Position numbers and translations under genes: made by a program. Source: Eledone cirrhosa (lineage: Eukaryota). Taken from it: 64,000 nt of DNA. The stretch spans positions 27,528,001-27,592,000 of the forward strand of contig OZ024743.1 in NCBI GenBank assembly GCA_964016885.1, written 5' to 3'. Numbering within the stretch: the first letter of the stretch is position 1; each line of letters opens with the position of its first letter. The notes below the pieces were generated by a model. It was not told the DNA's origin and made no database searches. It saw only the letters and a program-made list of their open reading frames with translations. Positions 27,151-59,332 of this stretch are shown piece by piece.

Positions 27151-27156
27151 TCTATC

Positions 27157-28080: not shown

Positions 28081-28196
28081 ATTAACAAGCGATGCAACAA
28101 CACACCTCACACGCACACACACACACACGCACACACACACAGTAGCATTCCACCATACGAACATACTACACTGCCAATACAGATGAACAAGGCAAC

Positions 28197-28239
<43 letters not shown>

Positions 28240-28720: not shown

Positions 28721-28775
28721 AATTAAAGATATTTACTTATTGTTCCACAATGCTTCAAGCAAACTTCAATACTCT

Positions 28776-28840
<65 letters not shown>

Positions 28841-30578: not shown

Positions 30579-30650
30579 AATATGTATGTGTATAAAATAA
30601 TTAAGTCAAATATGTAAAATATGGCTTCGTTTATTATAAATTATAGATAT

Positions 30651-30705
30651 ACTGCTATATAGATTTCGGTGACAGCCATCATTGGCTGTGACTTCTTCAG
30701 GCAGT
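30651..30705 (-). ncRNA. Type I HHR (CUGAAGA core)
   Basis: actgc CUGAAGA ag.cacagcca..tggctgtcacc GAAA tctata UA gcagt. Confidence 0.7.
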
Positions 30706-30841
30706 CTGAATTGGTGTGGGAAAGACAGGTACACATGTTGTTGAAGTGTCTTTTACTCCCAGGAGCTGGACATATCGATGTATTGACGGAGTAAAACACA
30801 CTTCAACAACATGTGTACCTGTCTTTCCCACACCAATTCAG

Positions 30842-30896
30842 ACTGCCTGCAGAGGTCACAGCCATTGATGGCTGTCGCCGAAATCTATATAGCAGT
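30842..30896 (+). ncRNA. Type I HHR with mutated core (CUGCAGA)
   Basis: actgc CUGCAGA ggtcacagcca..tggctgtcgcc GAAA tctata UA gcagt. Confidence 0.6.
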
Positions 30897-31090
30897 ATAT
30901 CTATAATTTATAATAAACGAAGCCAAATTTTACATATTTGACTTAATTATTTTACATTACTCCGGAGTAAACAAACCAACCTGCGTACTTCGTCGAATGC
31001 TCCAATCTGCATACTGAGGTGTCGGTAAACAACCAACATATACTCAAAATATATGTATGTATATATATAAACTTATATTTATATATATGT

Positions 31091-33566: not shown

Positions 33567-33645
<79 letters not shown>

Positions 33646-33758
33646 TTTGAGTATATGTTGGTTGTATACCAACACCTCAGTATGCAGATTATTCCGGAGT
33701 AATGTAAAATAAACTAAAATAAATAAGTCCAAATATTTAAAATTTGGCTTCGTTTATT

Positions 33759-33813
33759 ACTGCTATATATATTTCGGTGACAGACATCTTTGGCTGTGGC
33801 CTCTTCAGACAGT
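33759..33813 (-). ncRNA. Type I HHR in the inverted pLTR
   Basis: actgt CUGAAGA ggccacagcca..tgtctgtcacc GAAA tatata UA gcagt. Confidence 0.7.
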
Positions 33814-36800
33814 CCGATTTAGTATGGTAGAGACGAGTACACATGTTGTTGAGGTGTTTCACTTTGTCAATGCTCTGATATGCCGAGTTCCTGGTTGGGT
33901 TGTTATTTCACTGAGGAACTGGAATCATATGAATTTAAACAAACGAATATCAGCGTCAAAGGACATATTCTCCTCCCATTGGTTAGTTGTGAGAACTTGT
34001 GTATGTTAACGCCAAGTCAAACCACCCTAGATCCATAACCAAGGCCGTGGTGAAGAGTGTCTTGGACAGGATCTCAAGCCTGTCCGCAAATAAGGAAATC
34101 TTCGATAGCAACGCGGAATATTACAACGCAGCTCTAAATAAGGCGGCACATGGCCAAAATATAACATATAGTCCGAGGCGCTGGGATGAGGTTGGCCCAA
34201 AGGACACCCACACTCGCGTTGTCCGGGAGGGGGCGAACCCTAACAATACAGGTAGAACAGAAACAAATAAGCACCATGAGCCCGACACTACCACACGGGC
34301 GATGGTGACGAGTACGCTTAACCATGAGAAGAAACCCAATATGAGTAGCAGTCTCAGGGGTTATGCTAACGACCCGGGCCCGACGACCCCAACCGCAGGA
34401 CACGCGTGTGTGTGTGTGTGTGTGGGGGGGGGGGGGGTACCCGCCACAGTGGATCTCCCAGCGCGGGCAACAACCACCCCACAGATTCGGGCCGTGAAGA
34501 TAGCAAAATGCATAGCGCCCAAAAGGGAAACAACAATGCGGGAACCACCAGCAATCCAACAACTCTCAAGCAACACACGACGCCCTCAACCCACCCATAT
34601 AGGAGTAGACGCAGAAAAATCACGTGGTACAACTCACTCTACTCAGCGGCCCTAAAGAACAGCTTGGCCCGATCATTCTTTGGAGCTCTTGATAAATGCT
34701 TCCCGAGGGACCATAGATACCACAAGATCTTCAACAGACACACTGTGAAGCTCTCGTATTCCACCACGAGAAATCTGGCCCAACACATAGCTAGCATCAA
34801 CAAGAGTAGGCTTAAAAACCACACACAACCAGAAGATGGCAATATAAGCAGCCAGCAGAACCATGTGGAAGGAGAGAAGGGGGGGAGACCCAGTGCCACG
34901 CAAGAAACTCAAACAGACCCCCCCCCACCGGGCCCGAGGGAAGACCATCATGTAACACGTAACGGGAACCCCAGGCTAGGCACGCGGAGGTCGACCACCC
35001 TCTGCAAATGCAGAAACCCGAATCATGCCCCTTAGTAATGAATGCCTAAGGATGAACCTAATATACGGATGTAGGGTTAAAACCCCCAACCCGAACACCT
35101 CTACATAGGAGCCACGTCAACGAGCTTTAAAGACCGTTGGTATAACCATCGCCATTCCGTCAATAAGGAGGCCAAAAGGAAAAGTACGGCTCTTTCCGAC
35201 CTGATCTGGAAGCTTAAGCTCGACAGGATCCCGTACTCTCTGGCCTGGTCCATAATCAGGAAAGTACCACCCGATAAAGGGGAATCTCGCATATGCAAAC
35301 TATGTCTGAACTAGACCCTCGAGATACTAAGAGGTGGAAGCCGCCTGATAAACCTCAGAACCGACTTCTTCGGGACATGCAGTCACCTCAGGGCCGAGAC
35401 CTTCCTCAAGCTATATGGACAGTAAGAACACACTGAGATGTGAACTCCCCTCAAGCTATAGGGACTTCTCCAGAACATGTGGACACCTCCTGGCCGGACC
35501 TCCCTCAAGCTATATGAGCAGTAACAACACCATAGGTTGAGAACTCCCCCTCAAGCCATAGGGACCCATCCAGACTGAGCAGATACCATGATAGCCTAGA
35601 GATTGATTCTGACACAGCCTTTCTAATTTGGCCAACATCTTTATAACACACACATTTTATTTTATTTAAATCTTCATTTTTCTATTTCTCATTTCTTTTC
35701 TGTTTTCTTCACTTTATTGCCTTCTATTTCTTTCCTATGCATGACACAACCCTCACCACCACCACTGCAAGAAATCGTGGCAGGATGGATGAAAAAACAC
35801 AGACAGATACTTCTTAATGTCAGCAGCAGCAAGACCTAGGCTGACCGCAGCACCAACACCACTACCAAAATAAGGGTAGAGGTCAGATGTACTTAACAAT
35901 AGCAAACACAAACACTACAGGTAGCCTCACCCCAGAAAGAATTTCTATAGACCTTTGACTGAGAAATGCTCTCACAACTGACCAATGGGAGGAGTGACCT
36001 TGCAAATCTTTCTAACGTTGAGATTGGTTATAACACACACACATTTTACCTGATTATCTTATTTTGTTTTATTCTTTTACCATCTTGTTCCTCCTACCAC
36101 TTTATCCAACATCTTTCTGACTTTGAGATTGGTTATAGCACACACACATTTTATTTTACTTGAATCTTCATTTTTATTTTTCATTTATTTTCTATTTATT
36201 ATTTATTTTCTGTTTTCTTCATGTTATTGCCTTCTATTTCTTCATATGCATGGCACAGCCCCCCCCCCATCACCACCACGAGAAATGGTGGCAGAATGGA
36301 TGAAGAAACACACACAGATACTTCTAAATGTCAGCAGCAGCAAGACCTAGGCTTACCGCAGCACCAACGCCACTACCAAAATAAGGGTAGAGGTCAGATG
36401 TACTTAATAGCAAAACAAACACTACAGGTAGCCTCACCCCAGAAATAATTTCTATAGACTTTTGACTGAGGAATGCTCTCACAACTGACCGATGTGAGGA
36501 GTGACCTTACAAATCTTTCTAACATTGAGATTGGGTATAAAACACACACATTTTATTTGATTATCTTATTTTATTTTGTTCTTTTACCATCTTATTCCTT
36601 CTACCACTTTATCATTTTTTTTATCTGACTCCAACACCAACACCACTAACAATATAAGAGTAGAGGTCAGATGTAGTTAACAATAACAAGAACAGCCACT
36701 ACAGATTGCCTCGCCTCAGAACGAATTTCTATAGACTTTTGACTGAGGAATGTTCTCACAACTGACCAATGGGAGGAGAAGATGTCCTTTGACGCTGAAA

Positions 36801-36934
36801 TTCGTTTGTTTAAATTCATATGTTTCCAGTTCCTCATTGAAATAACAACCCAACCAGGAACTGGGCATATCCGAGTATTGACAAAGTTAAACACCTCAAC
36901 AACATGTGTACTCGTCTCTACCAGACTAATTCGG

Positions 36935-36989
36935 ACTGCCTGAAGAGGTCACAGCCAAAGATGGCTGTCACCGAAATATATATAGCAGT
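36935..36989 (+). ncRNA. Type I HHR in the 3' pLTR
   Basis: actgc CUGAAGA ggtcacagccaaagatggctgtcacc GAAA tatata UA gcagt; stem I actgc/gcagt, palindromic stem III. Confidence 0.8.
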
Positions 36990-37041
36990 AATAAACGAAG
37001 CCACATTTTAAATATTTGACTTATTTATTTTAGTTTAATTT

Positions 37042-37131
<90 letters not shown>

Positions 37132-37192
37132 TATATATATATATATATATATTTAAAAGAATAGAGGTGTAACACACGAATTATGATATATT

Positions 37193-37460
37193 GGTAAACG
37201 GAAAAGAAAATGCTGACAAATTATTCCCAGTGAAAAATAGTTTAATTAGGAATAAGTAAAAATTAGTGATGTTTGCTCTAGAGCAAACATCACGGGCGCT
37301 CTATCTCAAAATTATTTTTGAAAAGCATTAGAAATGCGCAACCGGTAAAACTTACAACCAAAACTGAATACTAGCCAATACTATTACTAATATTTACTTA
37401 TTCCTAATTAAACTATTTTTCACTGGGAACAATTTGTCAGCATTTTCTTTTCCGTTTACC
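37193..37460. mobile_element. Fold-back/MITE-like element with about 78-bp inverted arms and an internal 28-bp palindrome
   Basis: ggtaaacggaaaagaaaatgctgacaaatt.. versus ..aatttgtcagcattttcttttccgtttacc; internal gtgatgtttgctctagagcaaacatcac. Confidence 0.75.
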
Positions 37461-37479
37461 CATATATATACACACACAC

Positions 37480-37519
<40 letters not shown>

Positions 37520-37781
37520 CGGCGATGAATTAGTTTTGCGAGGTTTTTTATATGAAATCGTGTGTCGAAACAAATATTGTTATACTTGGGGAGGGTCATA
37601 TTTGTGTAATATTGCCAGAATTAATAACAGAACACACTCACTGTTTGGTTGGTTTTCGTTCTCGCTTCTGTGTCTTTTATATCGGTAATCTAACTTACTC
37701 GGTCCTCAATGTTGCCATTGACTGACCGACGGTCAAAAATAATACAGATACAATATAGACACAAACACATATATATAGTTT

Positions 37782-37823
37782 ATCATAAATCTTTCGTTGC
37801 ACATCTGCAACATCGTCAGTGGT
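37782..37823 (-). ncRNA. HHR-like motif (CUGACGA plus extra U), partly decayed
   Basis: acca CUGACGA U gttgca gatg tgcaac GAAA gatt UA tgat. Confidence 0.6.
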
Positions 37824-38066
37824 GCTATCGTTTCCTCCTGTTGTATTGTATGTCTACGCCATTTTTATTCAGTCTGTCTATATATTTATTTATTTATTTG
37901 CTTGTTTGTTTATTTTATTTTGTCTTCTTTGCGCATGCGTTTGCGTGTGTGTATAGTGTTTTGTTTGCTGTGTGATGGGTGACTAGTGTGTGTTTATGTG
38001 CTTGTTGTTATTGTGCTTGTGTATGTATTTATTTATTTATTTATTTATTTAATTTTATTTACTTAT

Positions 38067-38537
38067 TTATACTTCTCTTAGGTCAGTGTTGTTTGTTTGG
38101 GTGTTGTTATTCCATTCATTCTTTCTGTTTAGTCTTGATCTTCTAATTTCTATTTCACTGGCCTCTCTGATTTGCCTATCTGCTGGGTCATTTCTATGTT
38201 TAGATATTATTCTAATTTCTATGTTGTCTATGTTACCGTCATGTTGTTGTCTAGCATGTTCGTAATGTACTGACCCGTTTTTTCGTCCTTTTAGTTCCCC
38301 CCAGTGTTGGTCTATCCTTTCACCTATGCTACGAGCTGTCTCACCTATGTATGTTGTTGTCATGTTTCTGCAAGTACCCTCTGTACATCTTATGCTATAG
38401 ACTACGTTTCTAGTTTTACAGTTTATCCGGGGGTTTACCTTACATATGATACATTTCCTATTGGTACAGTGGGTTTTCTTAAAAGGGTAGGTTTTGCTGA
38501 TCAGGGATTTTATGGTGGTTCCGGGCTTTTCTACCAC
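38067..38537 (-). pseudogene. PLE Cys linker + GIY-YIG endonuclease
   Basis: CTNRKCIIC..CKTRNVVYSIRC..C..YIGETARSIGERIDQH..RQIREA..LNRKNEW. Confidence 0.9.
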
Positions 38538-38538
38538 C

Positions 38539-39795
38539 TTAATTTGTAAGCGCCTTTCTACACTGGTTAGCTAATTTCCCTCCAGGGGTAGCGTCCACAA
38601 ACATTACACTCTGGTATCTCTGGTTGTCGTACCATGAAGTGGCTTTCCCTATCTTATGCCTAGCCCTATCTAAGCTATTCCATGATTTGCTCCTGTATAA
38701 TGGGCAAATTCCTTTCATGTCCGGTTCTATGAGGGTCTTATACTTCTCCATGGCTCCTTCGTATACTCTGACTCTGTCTCTTTGGTTGTAGCCAGAGAAC
38801 TGCATGCGGTTGATGAAGTGTTGGATGTGTCTTTCCATTTCTGTTGGGTCGCACATGCGGGACACATTCTTCATCACTCGTACCAAATCTGCGATCAGAA
38901 TATTAAATTTAGCACTACTGGACATTGCTGAGTTTTTGAGTATCAGGTATTTGGAGGCCATGGGTTTAGCATAGTGTAAGTGGAGAATTTGGGCTCTCTC
39001 GTCTATAGTGTTAATCCAGAGTTCTGTGTCTAATACAGGTAGTCTATTGTTAGGGTGTTTGGAAAGGAAGTCGATAGTTACAGTTATACTCTGGTGTATG
39101 GAATTAGCTATCTTCTGGATGCTTTCCATCGTGCTACGTTCTAAATCAAACTTGTTAGTGCTCTCTAGTGGGGATGTTCTTATAACTATATTGGTATCGT
39201 CTACATAACGAGAGTACATGATGAGGTCTATGGAGCTCTCATTAAGGAGATCTTTAAGTCTCCTTTCCCACCATACCATGAAAAGGTTGGCAACATCACC
39301 AGCTATGCTGACGCCAATGGCTGCTCCCCCATTTTGGGTGTAGATCTTCTCGTTGAACTTAAATATGTGGCGCTTTAGGGTAGTTTTGATACTAGCCCCT
39401 ATTGCATGTGCGACCATTTTTCTTACCTGATCCTTGTTTTGGGGGGTCCGTATAGCTTTGGTCCACCCAATGCCCCTTCCCATGGGAGTCTTTTTTGCCA
39501 TTGAGGTTATGGTGGGGTCTCTACCTCTTATAGGTCTACTAGGGCAGAAACGTCTAAGGTCATGGCTGTCTAGGTAGTCAGTGTCGTAGGTAAGTCTAAG
39601 TAGGAGGCCAAGTTCGTCTGTGTCGATGTCGCAGAACTCCACCTCACTCTCAATGATCATCTCCACACACCTTTTCACAGCAAAATCAATGTTAATGGAT
39701 GGATACAGTGACACCACATCCATGCTGCCTATTATGCAGTTGGATAGGCTCCTGTTTTTGTTGCACTCACTGATTCTGATTTTTGTTGCACTCAC
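38539..39795 (-). pseudogene. PLE reverse transcriptase (5'-truncated, frameshifted to the EN domain)
   Basis: GSMDVVSLYPSI, GAAIGVSIAGDVANLFM, YSRYVDD, LPVLD, HYAKPM. Confidence 0.92.
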
Positions 39796-39930
39796 TGATT
39801 CTCACTGTATCTGTATTATTTTTGACCGTCGGTCAGTCAATGGCAACATTGAGGACCGAGTAAGTTAGATTACCGATCTAAAAGACACAGAAGCTGGCAA
39901 TATTACACAAATATGACCCTCCCCAAGTAT

Positions 39931-39986
<56 letters not shown>

Positions 39987-39993
<7 letters not shown>

Positions 39994-42440
39994 CAAATAA
40001 CGAAACGAAATTAAATTTCGTTTCATTTGTAACTCACTTTTGTATGACTGATGCTTAAACAATTAAGTTAAAGATGTACATCCATATATGTATACTGAAA
40101 TACTAGTATGTATATGAATACACACACGTATACATATGTAGATGTACCAAGTTTTTTCACTGGTCACTTTACTGTGAGTGGCCAGCTATTCTGTATGTAA
40201 ACACACAGACAAACCGGTTTTTAGAGTCATACTGGTTTTTGAGGAAACACCTTTCCTCTATTCTCCAGAAAGCCAGACAAGGAATATTGAACTAGTTTCG
40301 TTGTTGTTACAACTCATCAGCAATATTTACCTATCTTCCGGCCTCTCTAGAGAATCGTAAAAGCACATATCGTTATATGCTTTTTCAATGAAAATTAGTA
40401 GTGGGCATACTAATTTGCATAGAGTGTGAGTAAGTACCGGTTCAACGGAGACGATAAAAACAAATAACGAAACGAAATTAAATTTCGTTTCATTTGTAAC
40501 TCACTTTTGTATGACTGATGCTTAAACAATTAAGTTAAAGATGTACATCCATATATGTATACTGAAATACTAGTATGTATATGAATACACACACGTATAC
40601 ATATGTAGATGTACCAAGTTTTTTCACTGGTCACTTTACTGTGAGTGGCCAGCTATTCTGTATGTAAACACACAGACAAACCGGTTTTTAGAGTCATACT
40701 GGTTTTTGAGGAAACACCTTTCCTCTATTCTCCAGAAAGCCAGACAAGGAATATTGAACTAGTTTCGTTGTTGTTACAACTCATCAGCAATATTTACCTA
40801 TCTTCCGGCCTCTCTAGAGAATCGTAAAAGCACATATCGTTATATGCTTTTTCAATGAAAATTAGTAGTGGGCATACTAATTTGCATAGAGTGTGAGTAA
40901 GTACCGGTTCAACGGAGACGATAAAAACAAATAACGAAACGAAATTAAATTTCGTTTCATTTGTAACTCACTTTTGTATGACTGATGCTTAAACAATTAA
41001 GTTAAAGATGTACATCCATATATGTATACTGAAATACTAGTATGTATATGAATACACACACGTATACATATGTAGATGTACCAAGTTTTTTCACTGGTCA
41101 CTTTACTGTGAGTGGCCAGCTATTCTGTATGTAAACACACAGACAAACCGGTTTTTAGAGTCATACTGGTTTTTGAGGAAACACCTTTCCTCTATTCTCC
41201 AGAAAGCCAGACAAGGAATATTGAACTAGTTTCGTTGTTGTTACAACTCATCAGCAATATTTACCTATCTTCCGGCCTCTCTAGAGAATCGTAAAAGCAC
41301 ATATCGTTATATGCTTTTTCAATGAAAATTAGTAGTGGGCATACTAATTTGCATAGAGTGTGAGTAAGTACCGGTTCAACGGAGACGATAAAAACAAATA
41401 ACGAAACGAAATTAAATTTCGTTTCATTTGTAACTCACTTTTGTATGACTGATGCTTAAACAATTAAGTTAAAGATGTACATCCATATATGTATACTGAA
41501 ATACTAGTATGTATATGAATACACACACGTATACATATGTAGATGTACCAAGTTTTTTCACTGGTCACTTTACTGTGAGTGGCCAGCTATTCTGTATGTA
41601 AACACACAGACAAACCGGTTTTTAGAGTCATACTGGTTTTTGAGGAAACACCTTTCCTCTATTCTCCAGAAAGCCAGACAAGGAATATTGAACTAGTTTC
41701 GTTGTTGTTACAACTCATCAGCAATATTTACCTATCTTCCGGCCTCTCTAGAGAATCGTAAAAGCACATATCGTTATATGCTTTTTCAATGAAAATTAGT
41801 AGTGGGCATACTAATTTGCATAGAGTGTGAGTAAGTACCGGTTCAACGGAGACGATAAAAACAAATAACGAAACGAAATTAAATTTCGTTTCATTTGTAA
41901 CTCACTTTTGTATGACTGATGCTTAAACAATTAAGTTAAAGATGTACATCCATATATGTATACTGAAATACTAGTATGTATATGAATACACACACGTATA
42001 CATATGTAGATGTACCAAGTTTTTTCACTGGTCACTTTACTGTGAGTGGCCAGCTATTCTGTATGTAAACACACAGACAAACCGGTTTTTAGAGTCATAC
42101 TGGTTTTTGAGGAAACACCTTTCCTCTATTCTCCAGAAAGCCAGACAAGGAATATTGAACTAGTTTCGTTGTTGTTACAACTCATCAGCAATATTTACCT
42201 ATCTTCCGGCCTCTCTAGAGAATCGTAAAAGCACATATCGTTATATGCTTTTTCAATGAAAATTAGTAGTGGGCATACTAATTTGCATAGAGTGTGAGTA
42301 AGTACCGGTTCAACGGAGACGATAAAAACAAATAACGAAACGAAATTAAATTTCGTTTCATTTGTAACTCACTTTTGTATGACTGATGCTTAAACAATTA
42401 AGTTAAAGATGTACATCCATATATGTATACTGAAATACTA
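39987..42440 (-). repeat. 467-bp HHR array, left block (about 5.3 units, ribozyme strand is minus)
   Basis: An identical 60-aa ORF recurs every 467 bp (40178...42046); HHRs start at 40283, 40750, 41217, 41684 and 42151. Confidence 0.97.
40283..40327 (-). ncRNA. Minimal type I hammerhead ribozyme (first of 5 minus copies)
   Basis: Reverse complement of the motif at 42805-42849. Confidence 0.88.
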
Positions 42441-45400
42441 CTAAAAACCGGTTTGTCTGTGTGTTTACATACAGAATAGCTGGCCACTCACAGTAAAGTG
42501 ACCAGTGAAAAAACTTGGTACATCTACATATGTATACGTGTGTGTATTCATATACATACTAGTATTTCAGTATACATATATGGATGTACATCTTTAACTT
42601 AATTGTTTAAGCATCAGTCATACAAAAGTGAGTTACAAATGAAACGAAATTTAATTTCGTTTCGTTATTTGTTTTTATCGTCTCCGTTGAACCGGTACTT
42701 ACTCACACTCTATGCAAATTAGTATGCCCACTACTAATTTTCATTGAAAAAGCATATAACGATATGTGCTTTTACGATTCTCTAGAGAGGCCGGAAGATA
42801 GGTAAATATTGCTGATGAGTTGTAACAACAACGAAACTAGTTCAATATTCCTTGTCTGGCTTTCTGGAGAATAGAGGAAAGGTGTTTCCTCAAAAACCAG
42901 TATGACTCTAAAAACCGGTTTGTCTGTGTGTTTACATACAGAATAGCTGGCCACTCACAGTAAAGTGACCAGTGAAAAAACTTGGTACATCTACATATGT
43001 ATACGTGTGTGTATTCATATACATACTAGTATTTCAGTATACATATATGGATGTACATCTTTAACTTAATTGTTTAAGCATCAGTCATACAAAAGTGAGT
43101 TACAAATGAAACGAAATTTAATTTCGTTTCGTTATTTGTTTTTATCGTCTCCGTTGAACCGGTACTTACTCACACTCTATGCAAATTAGTATGCCCACTA
43201 CTAATTTTCATTGAAAAAGCATATAACGATATGTGCTTTTACGATTCTCTAGAGAGGCCGGAAGATAGGTAAATATTGCTGATGAGTTGTAACAACAACG
43301 AAACTAGTTCAATATTCCTTGTCTGGCTTTCTGGAGAATAGAGGAAAGGTGTTTCCTCAAAAACCAGTATGACTCTAAAAACCGGTTTGTCTGTGTGTTT
43401 ACATACAGAATAGCTGGCCACTCACAGTAAAGTGACCAGTGAAAAAACTTGGTACATCTACATATGTATACGTGTGTGTATTCATATACATACTAGTATT
43501 TCAGTATACATATATGGATGTACATCTTTAACTTAATTGTTTAAGCATCAGTCATACAAAAGTGAGTTACAAATGAAACGAAATTTAATTTCGTTTCGTT
43601 ATTTGTTTTTATCGTCTCCGTTGAACCGGTACTTACTCACACTCTATGCAAATTAGTATGCCCACTACTAATTTTCATTGAAAAAGCATATAACGATATG
43701 TGCTTTTACGATTCTCTAGAGAGGCCGGAAGATAGGTAAATATTGCTGATGAGTTGTAACAACAACGAAACTAGTTCAATATTCCTTGTCTGGCTTTCTG
43801 GAGAATAGAGGAAAGGTGTTTCCTCAAAAACCAGTATGACTCTAAAAACCGGTTTGTCTGTGTGTTTACATACAGAATAGCTGGCCACTCACAGTAAAGT
43901 GACCAGTGAAAAAACTTGGTACATCTACATATGTATACGTGTGTGTATTCATATACATACTAGTATTTCAGTATACATATATGGATGTACATCTTTAACT
44001 TAATTGTTTAAGCATCAGTCATACAAAAGTGAGTTACAAATGAAACGAAATTTAATTTCGTTTCGTTATTTGTTTTTATCGTCTCCGTTGAACCGGTACT
44101 TACTCACACTCTATGCAAATTAGTATGCCCACTACTAATTTTCATTGAAAAAGCATATAACGATATGTGCTTTTACGATTCTCTAGAGAGGCCGGAAGAT
44201 AGGTAAATATTGCTGATGAGTTGTAACAACAACGAAACTAGTTCAATATTCCTTGTCTGGCTTTCTGGAGAATAGAGGAAAGGTGTTTCCTCAAAAACCA
44301 GTATGACTCTAAAAACCGGTTTGTCTGTGTGTTTACATACAGAATAGCTGGCCACTCACAGTAAAGTGACCAGTGAAAAAACTTGGTACATCTACATATG
44401 TATACGTGTGTGTATTCATATACATACTAGTATTTCAGTATACATATATGGATGTACATCTTTAACTTAATTGTTTAAGCATCAGTCATACAAAAGTGAG
44501 TTACAAATGAAACGAAATTTAATTTCGTTTCGTTATTTGTTTTTATCGTCTCCGTTGAACCGGTACTTACTCACACTCTATGCAAATTAGTATGCCCACT
44601 ACTAATTTTCATTGAAAAAGCATATAACGATATGTGCTTTTACGATTCTCTAGAGAGGCCGGAAGATAGGTAAATATTGCTGATGAGTTGTAACAACAAC
44701 GAAACTAGTTCAATATTCCTTGTCTGGCTTTCTGGAGAATAGAGGAAAGGTGTTTCCTCAAAAACCAGTATGACTCTAAAAACCGGTTTGTCTGTGTGTT
44801 TACATACAGAATAGCTGGCCACTCACAGTAAAGTGACCAGTGAAAAAACTTGGTACATCTACATATGTATACGTGTGTGTATTCATATACATACTAGTAT
44901 TTCAGTATACATATATGGATGTACATCTTTAACTTAATTGTTTAAGCATCAGTCATACAAAAGTGAGTTACAAATGAAACGAAATTTAATTTCGTTTCGT
45001 TATTTGTTTTTATCGTCTCCGTTGAACCGGTACTTACTCACACTCTATGCAAATTAGTATGCCCACTACTAATTTTCATTGAAAAAGCATATAACGATAT
45101 GTGCTTTTACGATTCTCTAGAGAGGCCGGAAGATAGGTAAATATTGCTGATGAGTTGTAACAACAACGAAACTAGTTCAATATTCCTTGTCTGGCTTTCT
45201 GGAGAATAGAGGAAAGGTGTTTCCTCAAAAACCAGTATGACTCTAAAAACCGGTTTGTCTGTGTGTTTACATACAGAATAGCTGGCCACTCACAGTAAAG
45301 TGACCAGTGAAAAAACTTGGTACATCTACATATGTATACGTGTGTGTATTCATATACATACTAGTATTTCAGTATACATATATGGATGTACATCTTTAAC

Positions 45401-47741
45401 TTAATTGTTTAAGCATCAGTCATACAAAAGTGAGTTACAAATGAAACGAAATTTAATTTCGTTTCGTTATTTGTTTTTATCGTCTCCGTTGAACCGGTAC
45501 TTACTCACACTCTATGCAAATTAGTATGCCCACTACTAATTTTCATTGAAAAAGCATATAACGATATGTGCTTTTACGATTCTCTAGAGAGGCCGGAAGA
45601 TAGGTAAATATTGCTGATGAGTTGTAACAACAACGAAACTAGTTCAATATTCCTTGTCTGGCTTTCTGGAGAATAGAGGAAAGGTGTTTCCTCAAAAACC
45701 AGTATGACTCTAAAAACCGGTTTGTCTGTGTGTTTACATACAGAATAGCTGGCCACTCACAGTAAAGTGACCAGTGAAAAAACTTGGTACATCTACATAT
45801 GTATACGTGTGTGTATTCATATACATACTAGTATTTCAGTATACATATATGGATGTACATCTTTAACTTAATTGTTTAAGCATCAGTCATACAAAAGTGA
45901 GTTACAAATGAAACGAAATTTAATTTCGTTTCGTTATTTGTTTTTATCGTCTCCGTTGAACCGGTACTTACTCACACTCTATGCAAATTAGTATGCCCAC
46001 TACTAATTTTCATTGAAAAAGCATATAACGATATGTGCTTTTACGATTCTCTAGAGAGGCCGGAAGATAGGTAAATATTGCTGATGAGTTGTAACAACAA
46101 CGAAACTAGTTCAATATTCCTTGTCTGGCTTTCTGGAGAATAGAGGAAAGGTGTTTCCTCAAAAACCAGTATGACTCTAAAAACCGGTTTGTCTGTGTGT
46201 TTACATACAGAATAGCTGGCCACTCACAGTAAAGTGACCAGTGAAAAAACTTGGTACATCTACATATGTATACGTGTGTGTATTCATATACATACTAGTA
46301 TTTCAGTATACATATATGGATGTACATCTTTAACTTAATTGTTTAAGCATCAGTCATACAAAAGTGAGTTACAAATGAAACGAAATTTAATTTCGTTTCG
46401 TTATTTGTTTTTATCGTCTCCGTTGAACCGGTACTTACTCACACTCTATGCAAATTAGTATGCCCACTACTAATTTTCATTGAAAAAGCATATAACGATA
46501 TGTGCTTTTACGATTCTCTAGAGAGGCCGGAAGATAGGTAAATATTGCTGATGAGTTGTAACAACAACGAAACTAGTTCAATATTCCTTGTCTGGCTTTC
46601 TGGAGAATAGAGGAAAGGTGTTTCCTCAAAAACCAGTATGACTCTAAAAACCGGTTTGTCTGTGTGTTTACATACAGAATAGCTGGCCACTCACAGTAAA
46701 GTGACCAGTGAAAAAACTTGGTACATCTACATATGTATACGTGTGTGTATTCATATACATACTAGTATTTCAGTATACATATATGGATGTACATCTTTAA
46801 CTTAATTGTTTAAGCATCAGTCATACAAAAGTGAGTTACAAATGAAACGAAATTTAATTTCGTTTCGTTATTTGTTTTTATCGTCTCCGTTGAACCGGTA
46901 CTTACTCACACTCTATGCAAATTAGTATGCCCACTACTAATTTTCATTGAAAAAGCATATAACGATATGTGCTTTTACGATTCTCTAGAGAGGCCGGAAG
47001 ATAGGTAAATATTGCTGATGAGTTGTAACAACAACGAAACTAGTTCAATATTCCTTGTCTGGCTTTCTGGAGAATAGAGGAAAGGTGTTTCCTCAAAAAC
47101 CAGTATGACTCTAAAAACCGGTTTGTCTGTGTGTTTACATACAGAATAGCTGGCCACTCACAGTAAAGTGACCAGTGAAAAAACTTGGTACATCTACATA
47201 TGTATACGTGTGTGTATTCATATACATACTAGTATTTCAGTATACATATATGGATGTACATCTTTAACTTAATTGTTTAAGCATCAGTCATACAAAAGTG
47301 AGTTACAAATGAAACGAAATTTAATTTCGTTTCGTTATTTGTTTTTATCGTCTCCGTTGAACCGGTACTTACTCACACTCTATGCAAATTAGTATGCCCA
47401 CTACTAATTTTCATTGAAAAAGCATATAACGATATGTGCTTTTACGATTCTCTAGAGAGGCCGGAAGATAGGTAAATATTGCTGATGAGTTGTAACAACA
47501 ACGAAACTAGTTCAATATTCCTTGTCTGGCTTTCTGGAGAATAGAGGAAAGGTGTTTCCTCAAAAACCAGTATGACTCTAAAAACCGGTTTGTCTGTGTG
47601 TTTACATACAGAATAGCTGGCCACTCACAGTAAAGTGACCAGTGAAAAAACTTGGTACATCTACATATGTATACGTGTGTGTATTCATATACATACTAGT
47701 ATTTCAGTATACATATATGGATGTACATCTTTAACTTAATT

Positions 47742-47745
<4 letters not shown>
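42441..47745 (+). repeat. 467-bp HHR array, right block (about 11.4 units, ribozyme strand is plus)
   Basis: The same unit inverted; ORF repeats 42772...47442 at 467-bp spacing; ends in (TA)n. Confidence 0.97.
42805..42849 (+). ncRNA. Minimal type I hammerhead ribozyme (first of 11 plus copies, every 467 bp to 47475-47519)
   Basis: aatattg CUGAUGA gttg taacaa caac GAAAC ta GUU caatatt: stem I aatattg/caatatt, stem II gttg/caac, palindromic stem III aactagtt. Confidence 0.9.
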
Positions 47746-47781
<36 letters not shown>

Positions 47782-47789
47782 CAGATTAA

Positions 47790-47840
47790 AGTTTAAGCAA
47801 AGAATCGCTGCTTTCACCCTTAACGGGATCTTCTGAAACT
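47790..47840 (-). ncRNA. HHR-like motif with CAGAAGA core
   Basis: agttt CAGAAGA tccc gttaa gggt GAAA gca gcgattctt tgc UU aaact. Confidence 0.6.
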
Positions 47841-48778
47841 AACAAAGTCAATCTGTAAACGCAGAAGTGGATATTTCAAAAAACGTTGCAACCGGAGGAA
47901 GATAGGAAGACGATACTTTGGTTCGTGGACACGTTCCCTTGCAAAGAACGGGAAAAAACGAATATAATACGTCCTTAATAGGAGCGGTGAAAAACAATTA
48001 CGCGCAAAGACAGAACCACGTTTATGGTATAAAAGAGGTCGTAGACTAATGTTCTCTTAGGTGGTTCATAGAGACGTTCTCTGGCAATGAACGAAAAAAA
48101 CGAAGATAATACGTTATATGTGGAGCGTGGAGAACAATTGCACGCAAAGACAAAACCACGTAAATGGTATAGCAGAAGTCGTAGACAAAATTCTAACTGG
48201 GAGACCGAATGAATCTCCGCTACAGAGTTAAGAATAAAGTAAATAAATACAATACAGAGGTAATAGAAATTAAATAAATACATACACGCATACAAATACG
48301 TACATACACAAGCATACGCGAAAACACTTACCATAGGTATACAAAACCACGCACATATAAATATGTGTGTGTGTGTAAGCGTGTATACAAATAAATAAAT
48401 AATTAAAAAAACGTATATAAATAAATAAATACGTATATAACAAGCGCACACACATACCTACATGTAAATACACAAATGTTCGGAGACGTAAGTCAACCAA
48501 AACATGAAGTACACATATACACACACCCTACATACGTACGAGCCTGCATACTCACACAGACGCAAAACTCCCGTATACACATAACCAAACCATATGTACC
48601 AGAATATATAAAATTATACGCCATAACATATTCAATCAAATATACGTACGAGAAAGTATACGTACCTTCACAAAACATACAGGTAATATATAGTTACCTA
48701 TGCAAATAAGTAATGGTATAAAGAAAACATATACTTAGCTACCACACCAAGACGTAAAACATCCACGTATAGATCGTA

Positions 48779-49240
48779 CTATCCGTTAGGGTATAACGTG
48801 GGGCTGTAATACAGGAAAGTTTTGTGCAATTTATGTTTACAAGCCGAAATTGCCTCAGATTTTTTGTTTAAGATGTGGTTTGTGGTGTAGAGTATTTCCA
48901 GGGCCTCAGCGGCGCAGGGGTCACAAGGTCTTTTATTTCCGTTATACGATCTAGTCCTAGCTAGGATCTCCCAGTGTAACTTATATTGGGTGTGGTTGTC
49001 TTTTAGACTCCAGATATAAGCTGAAAGTGACGTAATATTCCTTCTTAGAGGGTAATGAAAAGAATGGGTATGCATGTAAAGACGCTGCTTGAATCTATTG
49101 GCGGTTAACCCTATGTAGGCCCTACGGGACGTGGGTGTTTCAACCTTACATTTGTAGACAATGTTACTAGAGAGGCATTTCCCGGATAGGGGACAATCAA
49201 CCCGATTCCCACAATTACAGTTAATACTAACTACAGGGTT
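48779..49240 (-). pseudogene. PLE GIY-YIG endonuclease
   Basis: NIVYKCKV..AYIGLTANRFKQRLYMH..LSAYIW..CDPC..LNKKSE..CKH. Confidence 0.88.
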
Positions 49241-49269
49241 GCACGTGTTCCTACGGCTAGGTAGTTTAG

Positions 49270-50736
49270 CTAAATTTGAAGCTGTGATGTTATGTGCAAG
49301 GTTAGGTGTCGTAGAGTAAGAAATTTTAATAGTATTTCTATTAAAAATATTACTATGTTTATGTGTAGGGGAAAATGCTTCGTAATAAGGGAAAGAAAAA
49401 TCTTAGCTAATGGTGTGGCCACCTCCATATTATATGGTGGGTTATACCAACAAATGCGACGGGATCTATTTCTTCTAGGTCTATTTTCGTACTCTGTATA
49501 TGCTACTTTATCGACAAATCCACTCCGAGCAAGAGCTTCATTGTAATAAGTGGAATGGTCGTTGAAAATATGCTCGTTAATAGATAGACGGAAAAGTCTC
49601 AACGAAACGTTTCTTACCAGGTTCTTGGTTATGCTGGCAGGATGGTTGGAATGCTTACTTATGTAATTAAGCGTATCATTCGGCTTTCTATACGGGTAAT
49701 ACAACCCATTCGATAAATTGAGGGTAACGTCGAGGTAATTAACGACCGAGAGATTGGCCTCAACCTGTATAGAGAGGTTGAAGACTTTAAAGAAGGCTGT
49801 GAGTTCTTTTCTGAACCTGTCGCAAGCACGAGGTCCGCACTTAGTCATGGTCAAAAGACCATCATCACGGTACAAACCACCGCCCGCGTTAGGGAATTCG
49901 TCCTTGATAGAGAAAAGAAGGAAAAGGCCGATAAGATCAGTAACCTCCGCAGAATCGCTGGCGCCCATACTCACGTCGAATGGGGTACTATTGGATTTTT
50001 TAATCCAAATAGAGTCGTCGAAATTAATCACCGACTTACGGGCATTGAGGATGACATCAACTTCGAAATCCTTAACCACTGTGAGTGTTTTAGCGAAATT
50101 GATAGCTCTAAGGAAAAGTGGTAAAGTGATGGAGGAGTAGTAATTGTTGATGTCGAATTGGATAAAACGGCAATGTTCCTTGTTACATATGCCGTTAGAC
50201 CAATCAATCACCGCGAAAGAATTGTTCCACAGTGCAAGAGGGGCCAAACTTCTAATTTCAGGTATAATTCTATCAAGAATCGTTTTACTAAGTCTACCTA
50301 AATCGGACTTCGTAGGGTTAATAAGCCGAATAGATGGGTTGTTCGCAAAATTGGATTTGTGATCCTTCAGGGTAAAGTGGGGAGAAATAGGGTCCAGAGG
50401 TTCGGTCCGGTCCAGGATGTTGAGATCAGATGTGATTTTAAACCCATCATCGTTGATTTCATTGATGACGCACCGATTAGTTTTACGGTAATCCTTAGTT
50501 ACAGCATTATGTAGTAGTTGATGGTAAGTACTGCGCTCCACTTGATATAGGTTGCCAGTTTTGTCGGAATGGACGTGCACGGCATTAGAATCCTTAATAG
50601 AACGAATTCTATTCTTCAGGTCCTGCTGGAAGGAACTGCTCCTATTCCGAAATTTGATACTCCGTATGAGTTCCAAGACATCATTTTCGAAGGGTAGCAA
50701 TGCTGGGTTACACGGGGGGTTATCTATTCTGTGCAA
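49270..50736 (-). CDS. PLE reverse transcriptase (488-aa ORF, frameshifted at the 3' end)
   Basis: SDKTGN, TLKDHK..RLINP, QFDINNYYSSI, FDVSMGASDSAEV, GLYRDDGL, YLDV, SNHP, WYNPPY. Confidence 0.9.
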   Translation of the reverse strand: MHRIDNPPCNPALLPFENDVLELIRSIKFRNRSSSFQQDLKNRIRSIKDSNAVHVHSDKTGNLYQVERSTYHQLLHNAVTKDYRKTNRCVINEINDDGFKITSDLNILDRTEPLDPISPHFTLKDHKSNFANNPSIRLINPTKSDLGRLSKTILDRIIPEIRSLAPLALWNNSFAVIDWSNGICNKEHCRFIQFDINNYYSSITLPLFLRAINFAKTLTVVKDFEVDVILNARKSVINFDDSIWIKKSNSTPFDVSMGASDSAEVTDLIGLFLLFSIKDEFPNAGGGLYRDDGLLTMTKCGPRACDRFRKELTAFFKVFNLSIQVEANLSVVNYLDVTLNLSNGLYYPYRKPNDTLNYISKHSNHPASITKNLVRNVSLRLFRLSINEHIFNDHSTYYNEALARSGFVDKVAYTEYENRPRRNRSRRICWYNPPYNMEVATPLAKIFLSLITKHFPLHINIVIFLIEILLKFLTLRHLTLHITSQLQI

Positions 50737-52872
50737 ACAAAGTTCTCTTCATAATAATTAAATCGAACGAAGAATTCATGTACCTCGTGCTTTCAACGAA
50801 TAGAATACGAAAGCCTTTTCGGAGTGGAGTAATGAACACATCCTGTTGTTATGGTGGAATATATTTCGAATACTTAATTCAATTTATTTTAGTGCGGACA
50901 CATGCGTATAGACTGGAAATATTATGCTGTACGATATTCACGCATTTTCAGAACCATTGACAAATTAAGAAAGTTGAATGTGTTGTGGCAGTCGTATTCA
51001 GTTGGCAATCAAATCAGAGTCATAATGTTTGATAACTTGAATCTTATAATCCGTGTTTTCATTAAAGTTTTTCCCAGACTAAAATTCTAATTGTATAATT
51101 ATTACAGGTAAAAGTAGTATTGTTCTGGTAGATATCTCACCAAAGTACGTTTTCTCCAGAGGTTAGGTATACTCCATAGTATACCTAACGGTTTGTTAAA
51201 TACAAGATATTTAATCTCAGATTGTAAATTGAACAATAGTTGTGGTCGACACTGCGAAGAAGATAGTTGTAATGGTTTAACACATAAGGAAGAAATATAA
51301 CAAGACAAGCCATGTTCTAATGGTTACCATATGAAGTTATCTTTAGTATGTGCTTTACGAGTGGTTTGTGTGATAAAGGCAAGTGATCTAGTGCTTATAA
51401 TTTTCGGCTCACGATCGCAAATCGTGATTTCAAATCTCAGCAATTCACTATTATCTGTTGCTCCTCTCTACTCAGCTGGCAAAAATGAGTTGCAGCTTCC
51501 AAGTCAAAGGAACCGCCTTGTTACACATTGTTTCACACTTAATCTCCCTGACAGATCATTCAAAGTACACAGGTCACTGGAATGTTCAGCTACTCGCGCG
51601 CTGATTTCACGGACAGGCCGCCCGTTGACCAAACAACTAGAATACTTTTTGTCAGAATCAACTGAGTTCCCAAGAGTGGCCACTATTTTTACAAAGTATA
51701 TTTGAATGAAGAGAAGGAAATAGATGTAATATTATTATTGTTTTGAAGGCATTTTGCCTCTACAACGACGTGTAGGAGAAAATATCTATGTAATTTCTTA
51801 TAGTGTGACAAGTTCGATGCAATAAACACTCCTACGCATTTTATTGATCCTGAAGCATGGTTTCTAGAAACTGTTGTACATTGGAAATAACAGAATAACA
51901 GAAATATACTTCGTTAATATAGCCATCAGTTAAAGTTAAAATAAAAAACTATAAAATACCAACATAAATGAAAAATTAAAAGTTCAGACTAAATTCAATT
52001 TATTGTGCATTAATCTTATCTGTCATTCGTCGATATACATTTTTATATCGCAAAATGCATGATTGTTTCCTTTTATTTTTAAAATTTATCTGTCCGTTTG
52101 AGCGTCATTTCGATTATGAGCAGCAGCTAGTTAAACAAATTTAACACATTGCTATCACTAGAATCACTAAGTTGTCCCATATCTAGAGCTGCTTAACAGC
52201 TGTTACTTGACCAAAAAGTTTCATATTTCCTCTACTTATTTGCTATGAGCTATTTTTATATTGCAATGTAAAATCCAACAGTTGTTGCTAATACATCTAT
52301 TGTATTAACAATTTGTGCAGAACATGCAACTCGCTGAACTTTAGGGTAGCATTCAATGTAAAATAAGAAACGTAATGAATATAAAAGCTCATTTACCGTA
52401 AGTATGTTTGAGTGAACCAGAAATATTTATATATTTATAACGACACAAAGAAAACGTTTCAATATATTTGCCTGACTTGATTGAAAATAAAAGGTCAGTG
52501 GATTCAATAACACATAACTAAAAAATATTTCCATAAATGAATTATGTATTGTCAATAATTAATTTAATGCCCAATGACCTATCATAGCAAACAATTTTTG
52601 AATAGTGGGTATTCATAGAAACCGAAGACGGCGGTTTAGCATCTCATCCTGTTGTGAAGGTGGCGCACTGGGAGTAGACTGAGTTGAAATATGTATAACA
52701 ATCAGTAAAGGTAAGTCAATTTCCTCACTTCTAATACTTGTGAATAAATAAATTGGACACATATATATGTATTATCTCCATGTATCTATTTTATATATCT
52801 ACACACTCACATACGTAAATACATATACACATACACACATACATACTTATATACACACATACCCACCCCCAT

Positions 52873-53873: not shown

Positions 53874-54110
53874 TTGTTAGCTTCTTAAACATTAAATAGC
53901 CAATAACGGAGAACAGTATCCATACTCCTTTAATCTTTGCCAGACCAATATTATTGATCCACAATATTTGTAAAGGTATGCCCCCAAATGCAACTTTGCT
54001 CTTCATCACTCCGGGATCGATAAAATAAAAACCCGGTCAACTACTAGGGTTGCTTTAATCAATTAGAAATCCATATTTGTAAGTGTAAATTGTTTATAGT
54101 ATTAAGTGCT

Positions 54111-54215
54111 TCCCGCCGAGGTTAACTTTGCCTTTCATCCTTACGGGGTCGATAAAATAAAGTAACAGTAATACACTGGTTATTGCTGGCCTTGTGCCAA
54201 AAGTAGGAACAAGTA
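54111..54215 (+). mobile_element. 5'-truncated OK-like SINE
   Basis: cccgccgaggttaactttgcctttcatcc...gtgccaaaagtagg; flanked by agtattaagtgctt(c) direct repeats. Confidence 0.85.
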
Positions 54216-54459
54216 TTAAGTGCTTCTCAAATTATTCTATACCTCTATGTATGACTCGTTTATTATGGGATTTCAGGTGAAGCTGGTTGTAGATTGAACT
54301 CGGTCATAGTCTGTCAGAAGAATAGTGATTCATAAAACTTGAAACCATATGGTTCTATGTTTAAACTTATTGCATAACACATTCAAGAAGTGTCTTTTTC
54401 ATAGCCTTGGTGTAACCAATGCTTCATAAGTAGAATTTGATAGCCCGTCGTATAAATAA

Positions 54460-54485
54460 ATATATATATATATATATATATAGAC

Positions 54486-54573
<88 letters not shown>

Positions 54574-54721
54574 GTATGTTTATATATATAAATATATGTA
54601 TATATATGTGTGTGTATATATATACACACATATATATACATACAGATATATAAACATATACATATATATTATACATATATATATGTATGTATATATATGT
54701 ATACATATATATATATGTATA

Positions 54722-54801
<80 letters not shown>

Positions 54802-54810
54802 TGTGTGTAT
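54460..54810. repeat. (TA)n-rich microsatellite
   Basis: Seen directly. Confidence 0.97.
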
Positions 54811-55371
54811 CTCCACATCTATGTTTACCTATGGGTCTCTGTTTATGTTCCGTAACTTAAAAATCTGTAAAATATATAACAGACTTGAGAAAATAAGTAC
54901 TGTAATTTCTATGATCGCCTAAATCAAAGCGGTGCCTGAGCATGACTGCAGGGTAATGATTGAATCCAATAAAATAATTAAAGTATATTACCCTACGTTG
55001 CTACAAGAGTCCATATATTTTTGTGGAAGAAATGTCATTATTTGACATGTATATTGCAAGTAATTTTTGTATACCCTCGACAGATGATATCTCAAACTAG
55101 TCTCTATCGAGACTAGAAATCAACGGCTTTAAGCTGTCTTAGAAGAAGTGTTTAATTCTCAGTCGAAATACCTTATACTATTTATTCTGATTCCCTGCTT
55201 TCTCAGTTTAAATTCCATTGTCATTTATCATCCTCCTATGGATTGAGAAATAGACAACGCATTAGCCCAGGGCAGTGCGCATACACACACACATATATAT
55301 ATATATAGAATATATATGATGTTTGTGTATGTGTGTGTATCTTCCCCATTCTCATTTTCTCTCTTTGCCTG

Positions 55372-55532
<161 letters not shown>

Positions 55533-56900: not shown

Positions 56901-57040
56901 TAATTTATTGTGGAACCCTCTCTCCCCCTCTCTCTTTCTCTCAGTTTCTGTGTCTATTATAATTGTGTATGCTGACTACAATATATGTTGTTCAATTATA
57001 TGCAATACTGAATTATTTATCACACTTCATCAGAAAGCCT

Positions 57041-58328: not shown

Positions 58329-58365
<37 letters not shown>

Positions 58366-59187: not shown

Positions 59188-59224
<37 letters not shown>

Positions 59225-59248
59225 CATACACATACATACATACATACA

Positions 59249-59332
<84 letters not shown>

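Follow-up and report, generated by a model that had tools for sequence, protein, structure and literature searches.

In a window of 64,000 nucleotides of the Eledone cirrhosa genome (assembly GCA_964016885.1, contig OZ024743.1, positions 27,528,001 to 27,592,000 of the forward strand), a 467-bp tandem array that reverses its orientation midway (39987-47746) is probably a non-LTR retrozyme, a non-coding hammerhead repeat, that inserted recently into (TA)n; the likely agent is a Penelope-type reverse transcriptase (RT)-endonuclease acting through coupled priming of both DNA ends at two sites, A and B, on one RNA. The first-pass annotation of this window had proposed that cDNAs are primed at the two ends of a (TA)n break and joined at their truncated 5' ends, which our data retain, and that these cDNAs are independent, which they do not support. 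The end rule, the private variants shared by both arms, the non-nested arms and the junctions described below support double-ended priming as a single event that is coupled, asymmetric and confined to one template.

TRF resolved the element into two 467-bp arrays, 39987-42440 (5.3 copies) and 42441-47746 (11.4 copies), each with 100% match. The left arm (minus strand, 5.26 copies) has its 3' end at the long site B (phase 238) and its 5' end at phase 120, and the right arm (plus strand, 11.36 copies), whose sequence equals that of the left, has its 3' end at the short site A (phase 169); TRF placed the flanking targets at 39935-39989, (AT)27.5, and at 47745-47774, (TA)15. At the inversion junction (42440/42441), whose letters are as first annotated, phase 120 is joined to phase 1 with neither microhomology nor insertion. 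The 'tail' between site A (phase 163-170) and site B (phase 235-238) is terminal on the left arm only (39987-40060, minus strand) and contains a predicted hairpin of ~13 bp terminating 12 nt before B. The unlike stop points of the two outer ends had not been remarked in the first-pass annotation.

Rfam Hammerhead_HH9 matched the five left units on the minus strand and the 11 right units on the plus strand (37.7 bits, E 6e-6), all 16 matches scoring under the Rfam gathering score of 52, with the core motifs and stems I-III present. The innermost type I hammerhead motifs lie at 42135-42206 (minus strand, 37.7 bits) and 42794-42865 (plus strand, with a minimal palindromic stem III), and cleavage is predicted after phase 402 of the unit. 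HH9 strands and TRF flanks agree that both ribozyme-sense strands point outward into (TA)n, as had been noticed. The interval 39987-47746 consists of pure tandem units, without an LTR layout and with no ORF of at least 120 aa. Its hammerhead, non-coding tandem layout and dispersed copies are those expected of a metazoan non-LTR retrozyme. Exact end patterns of the 467 family were found genome-wide 1954 times for B and 316 times for A (reversed-pattern controls, 0); a window marker at phase 305 occurred 16 times here and five times at four other loci, none of which carried a second marker.

The two outer ends of inverted copies follow a nearly strict rule. Site B lies ~70 nt beyond site A, and among 75 inverted 467-family loci (a main set, in which 65/69 were A+B, and six added later) 70 combined one A with one B end, one was A+A, four paired A with another end and none was B+B, with arm borders placed by hand from BLAST output. 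One apparent B+B pair among the pattern matches on contig C1, with its ends 6.3 kb from each other, proved to comprise two separate insertions (L119). In anchored samples, all from contig C1, the partner of A was B at 27/29 loci (another end at two) and the partner of B was A at 15/15, and three ends predicted ahead of sequence retrieval were all as predicted. When loci were selected by identity and had both ends at A or B, 23/24 were A+B (p = 1.5e-6); since independent choice of start sites gives at most 50% A+B, this speaks against independent cDNAs. Both sites were also found alone, as fixed 3' ends. The proposal that one rule governs at least six families was borne out, five more families behaving like the 467 family: a short and a long end were paired in 16/16 resolved inversions of family V, 13/16 of W, 11/12 of N, 9/10 of P (up to three further cases unclear) and, with a biased query, at 28/30 loci of family M. 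No defensible shared structure was found in the folded 3' ends of eight families.

Divergent same-family inversions were present in 26/32 loci chosen by unit identity rather than by geometry, a direct tail-to-tail joint in none of the 467-family loci examined, and convergent pairs only where (TA)n separated two neighbours (39938/39989 in the window, and L050); the inversion is therefore not a product of chance. Both flanks were TA-rich at 57/69 loci, where (TA)n makes a target-site duplication unreadable, and both arms exceeded one unit at 35/69.

Seven of the eight sites named in the annotation as sharing this geometry are indeed same-family inversions, the exception being 23721-28777, which joins different families. 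Besides the focal array, head-to-head same-family inversions whose outer ends both run into TA-rich repeat lie at 6717-6916 (family M; long end left, short end right; junction inside a natural hairpin, and a hammerhead-like motif reduced to its 3' half), at 6941-7696, 7714-7994 and 30593-31050 (families W, with a 497-bp unit, Z and P, respectively, all with the short end left and the long end right), at 33643-37042 (family P; the long arm bears a broken RT/GIY-YIG-type ORF) and at 37519-39938 (family N, with a broken RT and a GIY-YIG-type ORF on the minus strand; long end left, short end right). The two family P sites share 74-79% identity, and at 33643-37042 the arms are not nested, the long end being on the short arm and the short end on the long arm. 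The chimeric divergent insertion (junction 25556/25557), whose arms are unrelated, joins a 540-bp hammerhead-motif array of family V (minus strand, short end) to two fused Penelope-type RT/GIY-YIG fragments (plus strand, long end). ORFs of RT and GIY-YIG type are found in families N and P; Pfam assigned families to only 4/14 ORFs, with GIY-YIG (PF01541, E 1e-4) at 27130-28077 and RVT_1 at 38542-39801 under the cut-off (E 7e-4). No hammerhead outside the focal family was among the Rfam matches listed, and the sense of the other families was taken from hammerhead core motifs identified by eye or from ORFs. Rfam miRNA matches were rejected as chance matches to TA/CA repeats and hairpins.

Junctions were distinct at 69/69 loci, with offsets spread over the whole circle. 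Microhomology of at least 2 nt was present in 22/41 junctions, against 18.3% expected (p = 4e-7), with 2-4 nt enriched; the junction microhomology suggested as a check on double-ended priming is therefore in excess, the focal junction itself having none. Only 6/138 5' ends fell in a 10-nt window at the predicted ribozyme cleavage site, with no significant enrichment (p = 0.08). Fixed 3' ends at both TA flanks, distinct junctions, non-nested arms and excess microhomology all agree with priming from both ends.

The alternative that fares best, although we consider it unlikely, starts from priming at a single end, after which the RT would turn back along its own cDNA or switch to an antisense template and extend the inverted arm outward, leaving the endonuclease to resolve the product at a second fixed site. 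Its component steps have already been proposed in print, as self-priming on an antisense template (Arkhipova 2013) and endonuclease-mediated resolution (Craig 2021); it yields one long and one short end unaided, and the ATT in site A is the motif best cleaved by the anole protein (PMC11167929). Moreover, arms were nested at 55/65 A+B loci, joins at nearly the same phase, that is near-palindromic junctions, were slightly over-represented (7/69, p = 0.035) and family M joins within a hairpin, so that fold-back may have acted there. Of 15 matches in a search for a non-inverted family M parent whose hammerhead is complete, 12 were retrieved, and every one was an inverted copy. At the other 10/65 loci (11.5 ± 2.9 with shuffled arm lengths) the arms are not contained in one another, which indicates that the two were templated separately and rules out simple fold-back at those loci, as it does for 33643-37042; in six of the ten, L068 (112-169 and 174-238) among them, each arm is shorter than one unit. 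The longer arm can be either one (29 versus 36), and B arms stopping at or before site A were no commoner than equally short A arms (7 versus 7 of 65), so there is no collision signature. Against fold-back also stand the junction offsets, which cover the whole circle, and the occurrence of A and B as lone 3' ends, which match the two-start-site pattern seen in vitro (PMC11167929). The antisense-template version passes the nesting test, yet it requires abundant antisense RNA of the same private haplotype.

The literal model of the first-pass annotation, in which each end of a break primes an independent cDNA on a separate RNA and chooses its start site freely, we regard as improbable: it is largely refuted for same-family loci and may apply to a minority of chimeric events. 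Nesting is as frequent as with shuffled arm lengths, as this model would have it, and cross-family divergent chimeras exist (23721-28777, L044, L086, L099, L122, L256) that do not hold to the A+B rule, a rule of that type being kept in only 2/4 scorable cases; deletion between neighbours in one (TA)n can, however, also make chimeras. The near-absence of pairings other than A+B in same-family loci is contrary to free choice, and so is the common haplotype of the arms. They were identical at 29/53 loci (2.3 expected), their mean distance was 0.34% within and 3.0% between loci, a similarity that arm-to-arm gene conversion or assembly polishing could have raised, and at 16/53 loci both arms carried variants absent from all other sampled loci, despite the many haplotypes of the family. 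Arm lengths were also correlated (rho 0.38, p = 0.002).

Marginally less probable still is an origin of the inversion at the DNA level, whether later (by recombination between neighbouring insertions, palindrome formation, or unequal crossover with gene conversion), by inheritance from an inverted master, or from a DNA rolling-circle element. Elements do pile up in the same (TA)n, and one preprint proposes that retrozyme arrays are amplified locally through unequal crossover (bioRxiv 10.64898/2026.07.22.740005). Under random recombination, however, the ends would not be fixed at one A and one B; elements with RT and GIY-YIG-type ORFs obey this rule too, and an inherited inverted master is ruled out because all 69 junctions differ. 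Variants inside multi-unit arrays were either array-wide or single, as expected if one unit was copied many times. Array-wide private variants were richer in A>G than single-unit variants (10/29 versus 10/119, Fisher p = 0.0009); these editing-like variants showed no significant strand asymmetry (A>G 10, T>C 5, p = 0.21), and the RNA-editing signature is a hint only. Terminal inverted repeats of a MITE or DNA transposon were ruled out by the unequal arms and variable junctions.

Among the unitig contigs and RAD reads listed for four runs, none crossed 42440/42441, and the window's private allele at 42613 was absent from the contigs of those runs; the sequenced sample may lack the focal insertion. 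Logan contigs from three runs of one sample contained opposite-orientation joints at other phases, with sides of only 20-28 nt and some at natural palindromes. An assembly or library artefact (fold-back reads, amplification chimeras or collapsed repeats) would suit the 100% identical units and the unspanned focal junction, and copy numbers may indeed be misassembled, but it is very improbable given two different fixed ends against (TA)n on both sides in 70 loci and six families, the many cases only 100-300 bp long, and the Logan joints.

Under coupled priming at two sites on one RNA, both strands of the self-complementary (TA)n would be nicked, as the anole Penelope protein does in vitro. One 3'-OH would start at B and the other at A, where the ends are found, each presumably pairing over 1-3 nt with U, UA or UAU in the RNA. 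Both RTs would then travel 5'-ward round a monomeric circle, to which the array-wide private variants point, with strand displacement, giving many identical units per arm; the mosaic arrays L035, L046 and L050, in which unit order differs between arms, go beyond what one monomeric circle gives. The two cDNA 3' ends would finally be joined at unrelated phases, often via 2-4 nt complementarity or short insertions, as the junction statistics suggest, with fill-in by host repair. A protein dimer of two unequal halves would be the likely cause of the one-A-one-B rule. To the broader claim, that endonuclease-bearing Penelope-like elements normally integrate by coupled two-site priming, we give even chances. 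In it, a dimeric, asymmetric RT-endonuclease would cut both strands of (TA)n and begin one cDNA at each of two programmed sites on one RNA, and with ribozyme circles as template the two RTs would roll together and produce mirror-image satellite arrays in one event; if true, one mechanism would cover inverted pLTRs, one-sided tails and retrozyme arrays.

Earlier work describes insertions of endonuclease-bearing Penelope-like elements in which a 5'-truncated pLTR is inverted and only one side has a tail (PMC3846280, PMC8557442, PMC2377424), so the head-to-head geometry with a tail at one end is not itself new. They resemble the insertions studied here in this layout (in the 467 family, a head-to-head inverted 5'-truncated copy at 26/32 loci and a tail at one end at 70/75), in (TA)n targeting, in a hammerhead near the 3' end and in the palindromic junctions of some families. 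They differ in tail length, 30-40 nt as published and ~42-120 nt here (~70 nt in the 467 family), and in that the long/short pairing has here been counted and is nearly strict; an RT with a C-terminal GIY-YIG inside the element, a Penelope-like feature, is absent from the non-coding 467 family. The explanations given in the available text of those sources are antisense self-priming or endonuclease resolution, not priming from both ends, and PMC8557442 treats as an open question how these elements build tandem and inverted structures. With metazoan non-LTR retrozymes (PMC7229834; bioRxiv 10.64898/2026.07.22.740005) the focal family shares tandem non-coding units, a type I hammerhead, low GC and co-occurring Penelope-like elements, its 467-bp unit comparing with a quoted 150-450 bp. 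For retrozymes, whose movement is still a proposal, the same two sources put forward circle-templated tandem cDNA and mobilisation by Penelope. A mid-array flip is absent from their available text ('inverted' occurs 0 times in the former and once, in a reference title, in the latter), and the preprint prefers local amplification after insertion, whereas the arrays here look inserted whole.

The anole Poseidon (PAc) protein cleaves and extends both strands of an AT-rich target in vitro; the protein, a predicted dimer, starts RT at two internal sites that bound the genomic tail (PMC11167929). The available text of that study reports no strand difference in start site, nor does it tie the two sites to inverted insertions. 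Our literature search found no paper joining inverted geometry, one-sided tail, (TA)n targeting, two-strand priming and two start sites. Young insertions with countable ends, haplotypes and junctions number in the order of a thousand in this genome, and the sharp rule drawn from such counts (one short end, one long end, same template) is directly testable in the existing in vitro system. If true, coupled two-site priming would mean that rolling-circle reverse transcription of ribozyme circles has left its evidence in a genome, and it would let multi-kilobase palindromic satellite arrays arise in one step.

It would also be a programmed form of twin priming, a model that for L1 reportedly dates from 2001. 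In L1 twin priming, both nicks prime on one RNA and the cDNA ends join by microcomplementarity (bioRxiv 10.1101/2024.08.27.596794). The insertions studied here share with it correlated arm lengths and junction microhomology, the latter lacking at the focal junction. In L1, however, chance decides at which internal site the second primer anneals, and most arms do not overlap (bioRxiv 10.1101/2024.08.27.596794), whereas here the second site is fixed for each family (phase 163-170 in the 467 family), each arm overlaps its partner and can run through many units, and roughly three in four loci are inverted.

The inverted array at 39987-47746, carried on contig C4 of a 3.0-Gb assembly (G000), is a real feature with a head-to-head geometry that was already known. 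Its arms, of 5.3 (left) and 11.4 (right) copies of the 467-bp hammerhead repeat, meet at 42440/42441, consist of units that are all identical across both arms and are bounded by (TA)n, at 39935-39988 on the left and at 47745-47774 on the right. Rfam HH9 matches (37.7 bits, below the gathering score of 52) lay on the minus strand in the left arm and on the plus strand in the right, so that both ribozyme strands are directed outward. For the other families, ribozyme sense was assigned by visual inspection of hammerhead core motifs or ORFs, since an Rfam rescan of two regions gave no hammerhead match. Among the other sites to which the first-pass annotation had extended this geometry, six are indeed same-family head-to-head inversions (30593 and 33643 belonging to one family), but 23721-28777, although divergent, joins unrelated sequences; at 27130-27140, two different Penelope-type ORF fragments, an N-like RT piece and a short RT-thumb/GIY-YIG piece, are fused in the same direction.

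A further small head-to-head element absent from that list, whose ends, one long and the other short, both lie in (TA)n, is found at 37152-37462; its end was a 93% match to the 3' terminus of an arm bearing a Penelope-type RT at a sampled locus elsewhere in the assembly (L122; L numbers denote such loci), and by this similarity it is probably the pLTR of an autonomous family. Directly adjoining the focal array, a minus-strand Penelope-type element (47775-50760) has its 3' end in (TA)n; no inverted partner of it was seen, and a 92% identical copy of its 3' fragment lies at 8103-8965. The window also holds an apparently intact non-LTR RT ORF of 1216 aa (19773-23423; RVT_1, E = 1e-29; zf-RVT), a related fragment (16304-17554) and many copies of a 200-bp SINE-like repeat (12207-17889 and 54103-62361, 80-90% identical).

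We sampled the 467-bp family in three ways, placing arm borders by hand from BLAST output: (a) all 32 loci among the matches listed (150 of 280) of an identity search, with 38 of 220 candidates scored; (b) the first 40 loci not already sampled among 316 short-end-plus-TA pattern matches; and (c) 20 regions (21 ends) among the first of the 1954 long-end-plus-TA matches, skipping four already in (b); samples (b) and (c) covered contig C1 only. A marker search added four loci. Same-family inversions made up 26/32 of sample (a), among the matches listed, 30/40 of (b), 16/21 of (c) and 3/4 of the marker loci; the remaining 22 loci were single arms or fused to other sequence, and no direct tail-to-tail joint was seen among the sampled loci.

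Two 3' end positions recurred in the unit, a short one, A (phase 163-170), and a long one, B (phase 235-238, once 231), and inverted loci nearly always combined one of each. The 69 loci first resolved comprised 65 A+B, one A+A, three A+other and no B+B; with three long arrays that at first had one unseen end and three further loci included, the final tally of 75 was 70, one, four and none, respectively. The focal array ends at B on the left and at A on the right. In sample (a), which was not end-selected, 24 loci among the matches listed had each end at one of these two sites, and 23 of them were A+B (p = 1.5e-6 against the 50% maximum under independent site choice); for the three long arrays, the class predicted in advance for the unseen end was matched each time. 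Lone fixed 3' ends also occur at A and at B. Some single arms (L059/L066/L310, L094/L312/L318 and L112/L313/L320) exceeded 25 near-identical units and 12 kb, which would require either processive copying over very long stretches or expansion afterwards.

The rule extended to other families. All 16 resolved same-family inversions of family V (540 bp, the unit of window 23721-25556; 23 loci) were short+long, as were 13 of the 16 inverted loci of family W (497 bp, 25 loci; other, 3). With queries anchored on the long end, the partner in family N (RT and GIY-YIG-type ORFs, 30 loci) was short in 11 and long-type in one, eight loci extending beyond the flank; in family P (30 loci) it was short in nine, long in one and unclear in three, with no partner within 1.5 kb in 17; and family M, whose query contained the centre, was inverted long+short in 28/30. 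Family Z was judged by eye only. Exact-motif matches in family V (L232-L259) revealed extra (CT)3-20 between the terminal TCTCT and (TA)n in 13/15 long ends, which resembles reiterative, telomerase-like copying at RT initiation, slippage after insertion being the alternative; some family P ends (L160, L170, L180) share this feature. A sister family, 65-75% similar (L041, L048, L062, L080), has the same hairpin just upstream of its long end and likewise occurs as inverted pairs.

Arm haplotypes were compared at 53 loci whose arms each reached 150 nt or more and had at least 100 positions in common: they were identical in 29 (random pairing expectation, 2.3), mean arm distance was 0.34% within loci vs 3.0% between loci, and in 16 the arms shared variants absent from every other sampled locus. 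Two private variants of the window array were present in every unit of both arms. One of these markers occurred 16 times in the window and five times at four other loci, all lacking the second marker; thus no donor array of the window haplotype was seen in the assembly, which is what repeated copying of one monomer would predict, with the caveats of arm-to-arm conversion, polishing or a donor missing from the assembly. A few arrays are mosaic (L035, L046, L050) and call for either multimeric templates or subsequent alteration, and variants alternating with period 2 along some arms (L035, L050, L051) suggest dimeric templates or local duplication. Cross-family chimeras, which kept the end rule in 2/4 scorable cases, may have arisen from two templates or by deletion between adjacent elements; at L044:4230-5484, L122 and L256, an arm that begins in one family runs on into a short stretch of a second family ahead of the junction, which suggests that a single reaction jumped from one RNA template to the other. 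Sense-strand A>G was enriched in array-wide private vs single-unit variants (10/29 vs 10/119; 73 young loci), which may reflect A-to-I editing of the template; the strand asymmetry was not significant.

All 69 inversion junctions were distinct. Among 61 young loci (eight older ones, <96.5% identity, excluded), 20 junctions carried insertions or mismatches, and the other 41 had microhomology of 0 (9), 1 (10), 2 (7), 3 (9), 4 (3) or at least 5 nt (3). Microhomology of at least 2 nt was found in 22/41 vs 18.3% simulated (p = 4e-7), and in 20/39 once two natural palindromes were set aside (p = 3e-6). At the focal junction, which is blunt, no spanning record was found among the listed contigs (from one or two samples) and RAD reads, so that reads neither confirm nor refute it. 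These contigs did not show the private allele of the window at 42613, and the sample concerned may therefore not carry the focal insertion; they do contain joints between the two orientations at other phases, whose short sides measure 20-28 nt.

Unequal ends at fixed positions, haplotypes shared between arms, arms that are not nested and variable junctions with microhomology were observed, and coupled two-site priming, circle copying and joining probably explain the inverted arrays. Both nicked (TA)n ends would be primed within one complex, one at A and the other at B; both RTs would travel round a ribozyme-made circle with strand displacement, and the cDNA ends would be joined afterwards. A Penelope-type protein is described as cutting and extending both strands of AT-rich DNA, with two internal start sites bounding the tail and a predicted dimer (PMC11167929).

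One-ended priming followed by a switch to the antisense strand and endonuclease resolution is, in our judgement, unlikely. Under fold-back, an arm copied from the other's cDNA would be contained within it; 10/65 A+B loci were non-nested (shuffled arm lengths, 11.5 +/- 2.9); six of these ten had less than one unit per arm, which rules out array expansion as their cause, and the L068 arms span phases 112-169 and 174-238 without overlap. The window inversion at 33643-37042 is likewise non-nested. The longer arm was A in 29 loci and B in 36, A and B arm lengths were weakly correlated (rho 0.38, p = 0.002), and junction phase offsets were distributed round the whole circle with a slight excess near zero (7/69 within 10 nt, p = 0.035). 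Family M, with its junction inside a natural hairpin and nested arms, still allows fold-back. Independent priming of both ends, as the first-pass annotation had proposed, would give at most half A+B, against the 23/24 found among the matches listed, and is improbable; a DNA-level origin of the inversion we hold to be slightly more so. The family-wide end rule makes an assembly or library artefact very improbable indeed.

What is new is the counted one-short-one-long, same-template rule, a testable constraint on an open mechanism. Head-to-head inversion has been described as the commonest layout and attributed to self-priming on an antisense template (PMC3846280), and Drosophila Penelope is described as having inverted terminal repeats that vary in size (PMC2377424). 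For retrozymes, circle-templated tandem cDNA and Penelope mobilisation have been proposed (PMC7229834), and local amplification is favoured for their arrays (bioRxiv 10.64898/2026.07.22.740005). We found no published proposal of coupled two-site priming for Penelope inversions in the literature searched; the working analogue of the two-ended priming considered here is L1 twin priming (10.1101/2024.08.27.596794).
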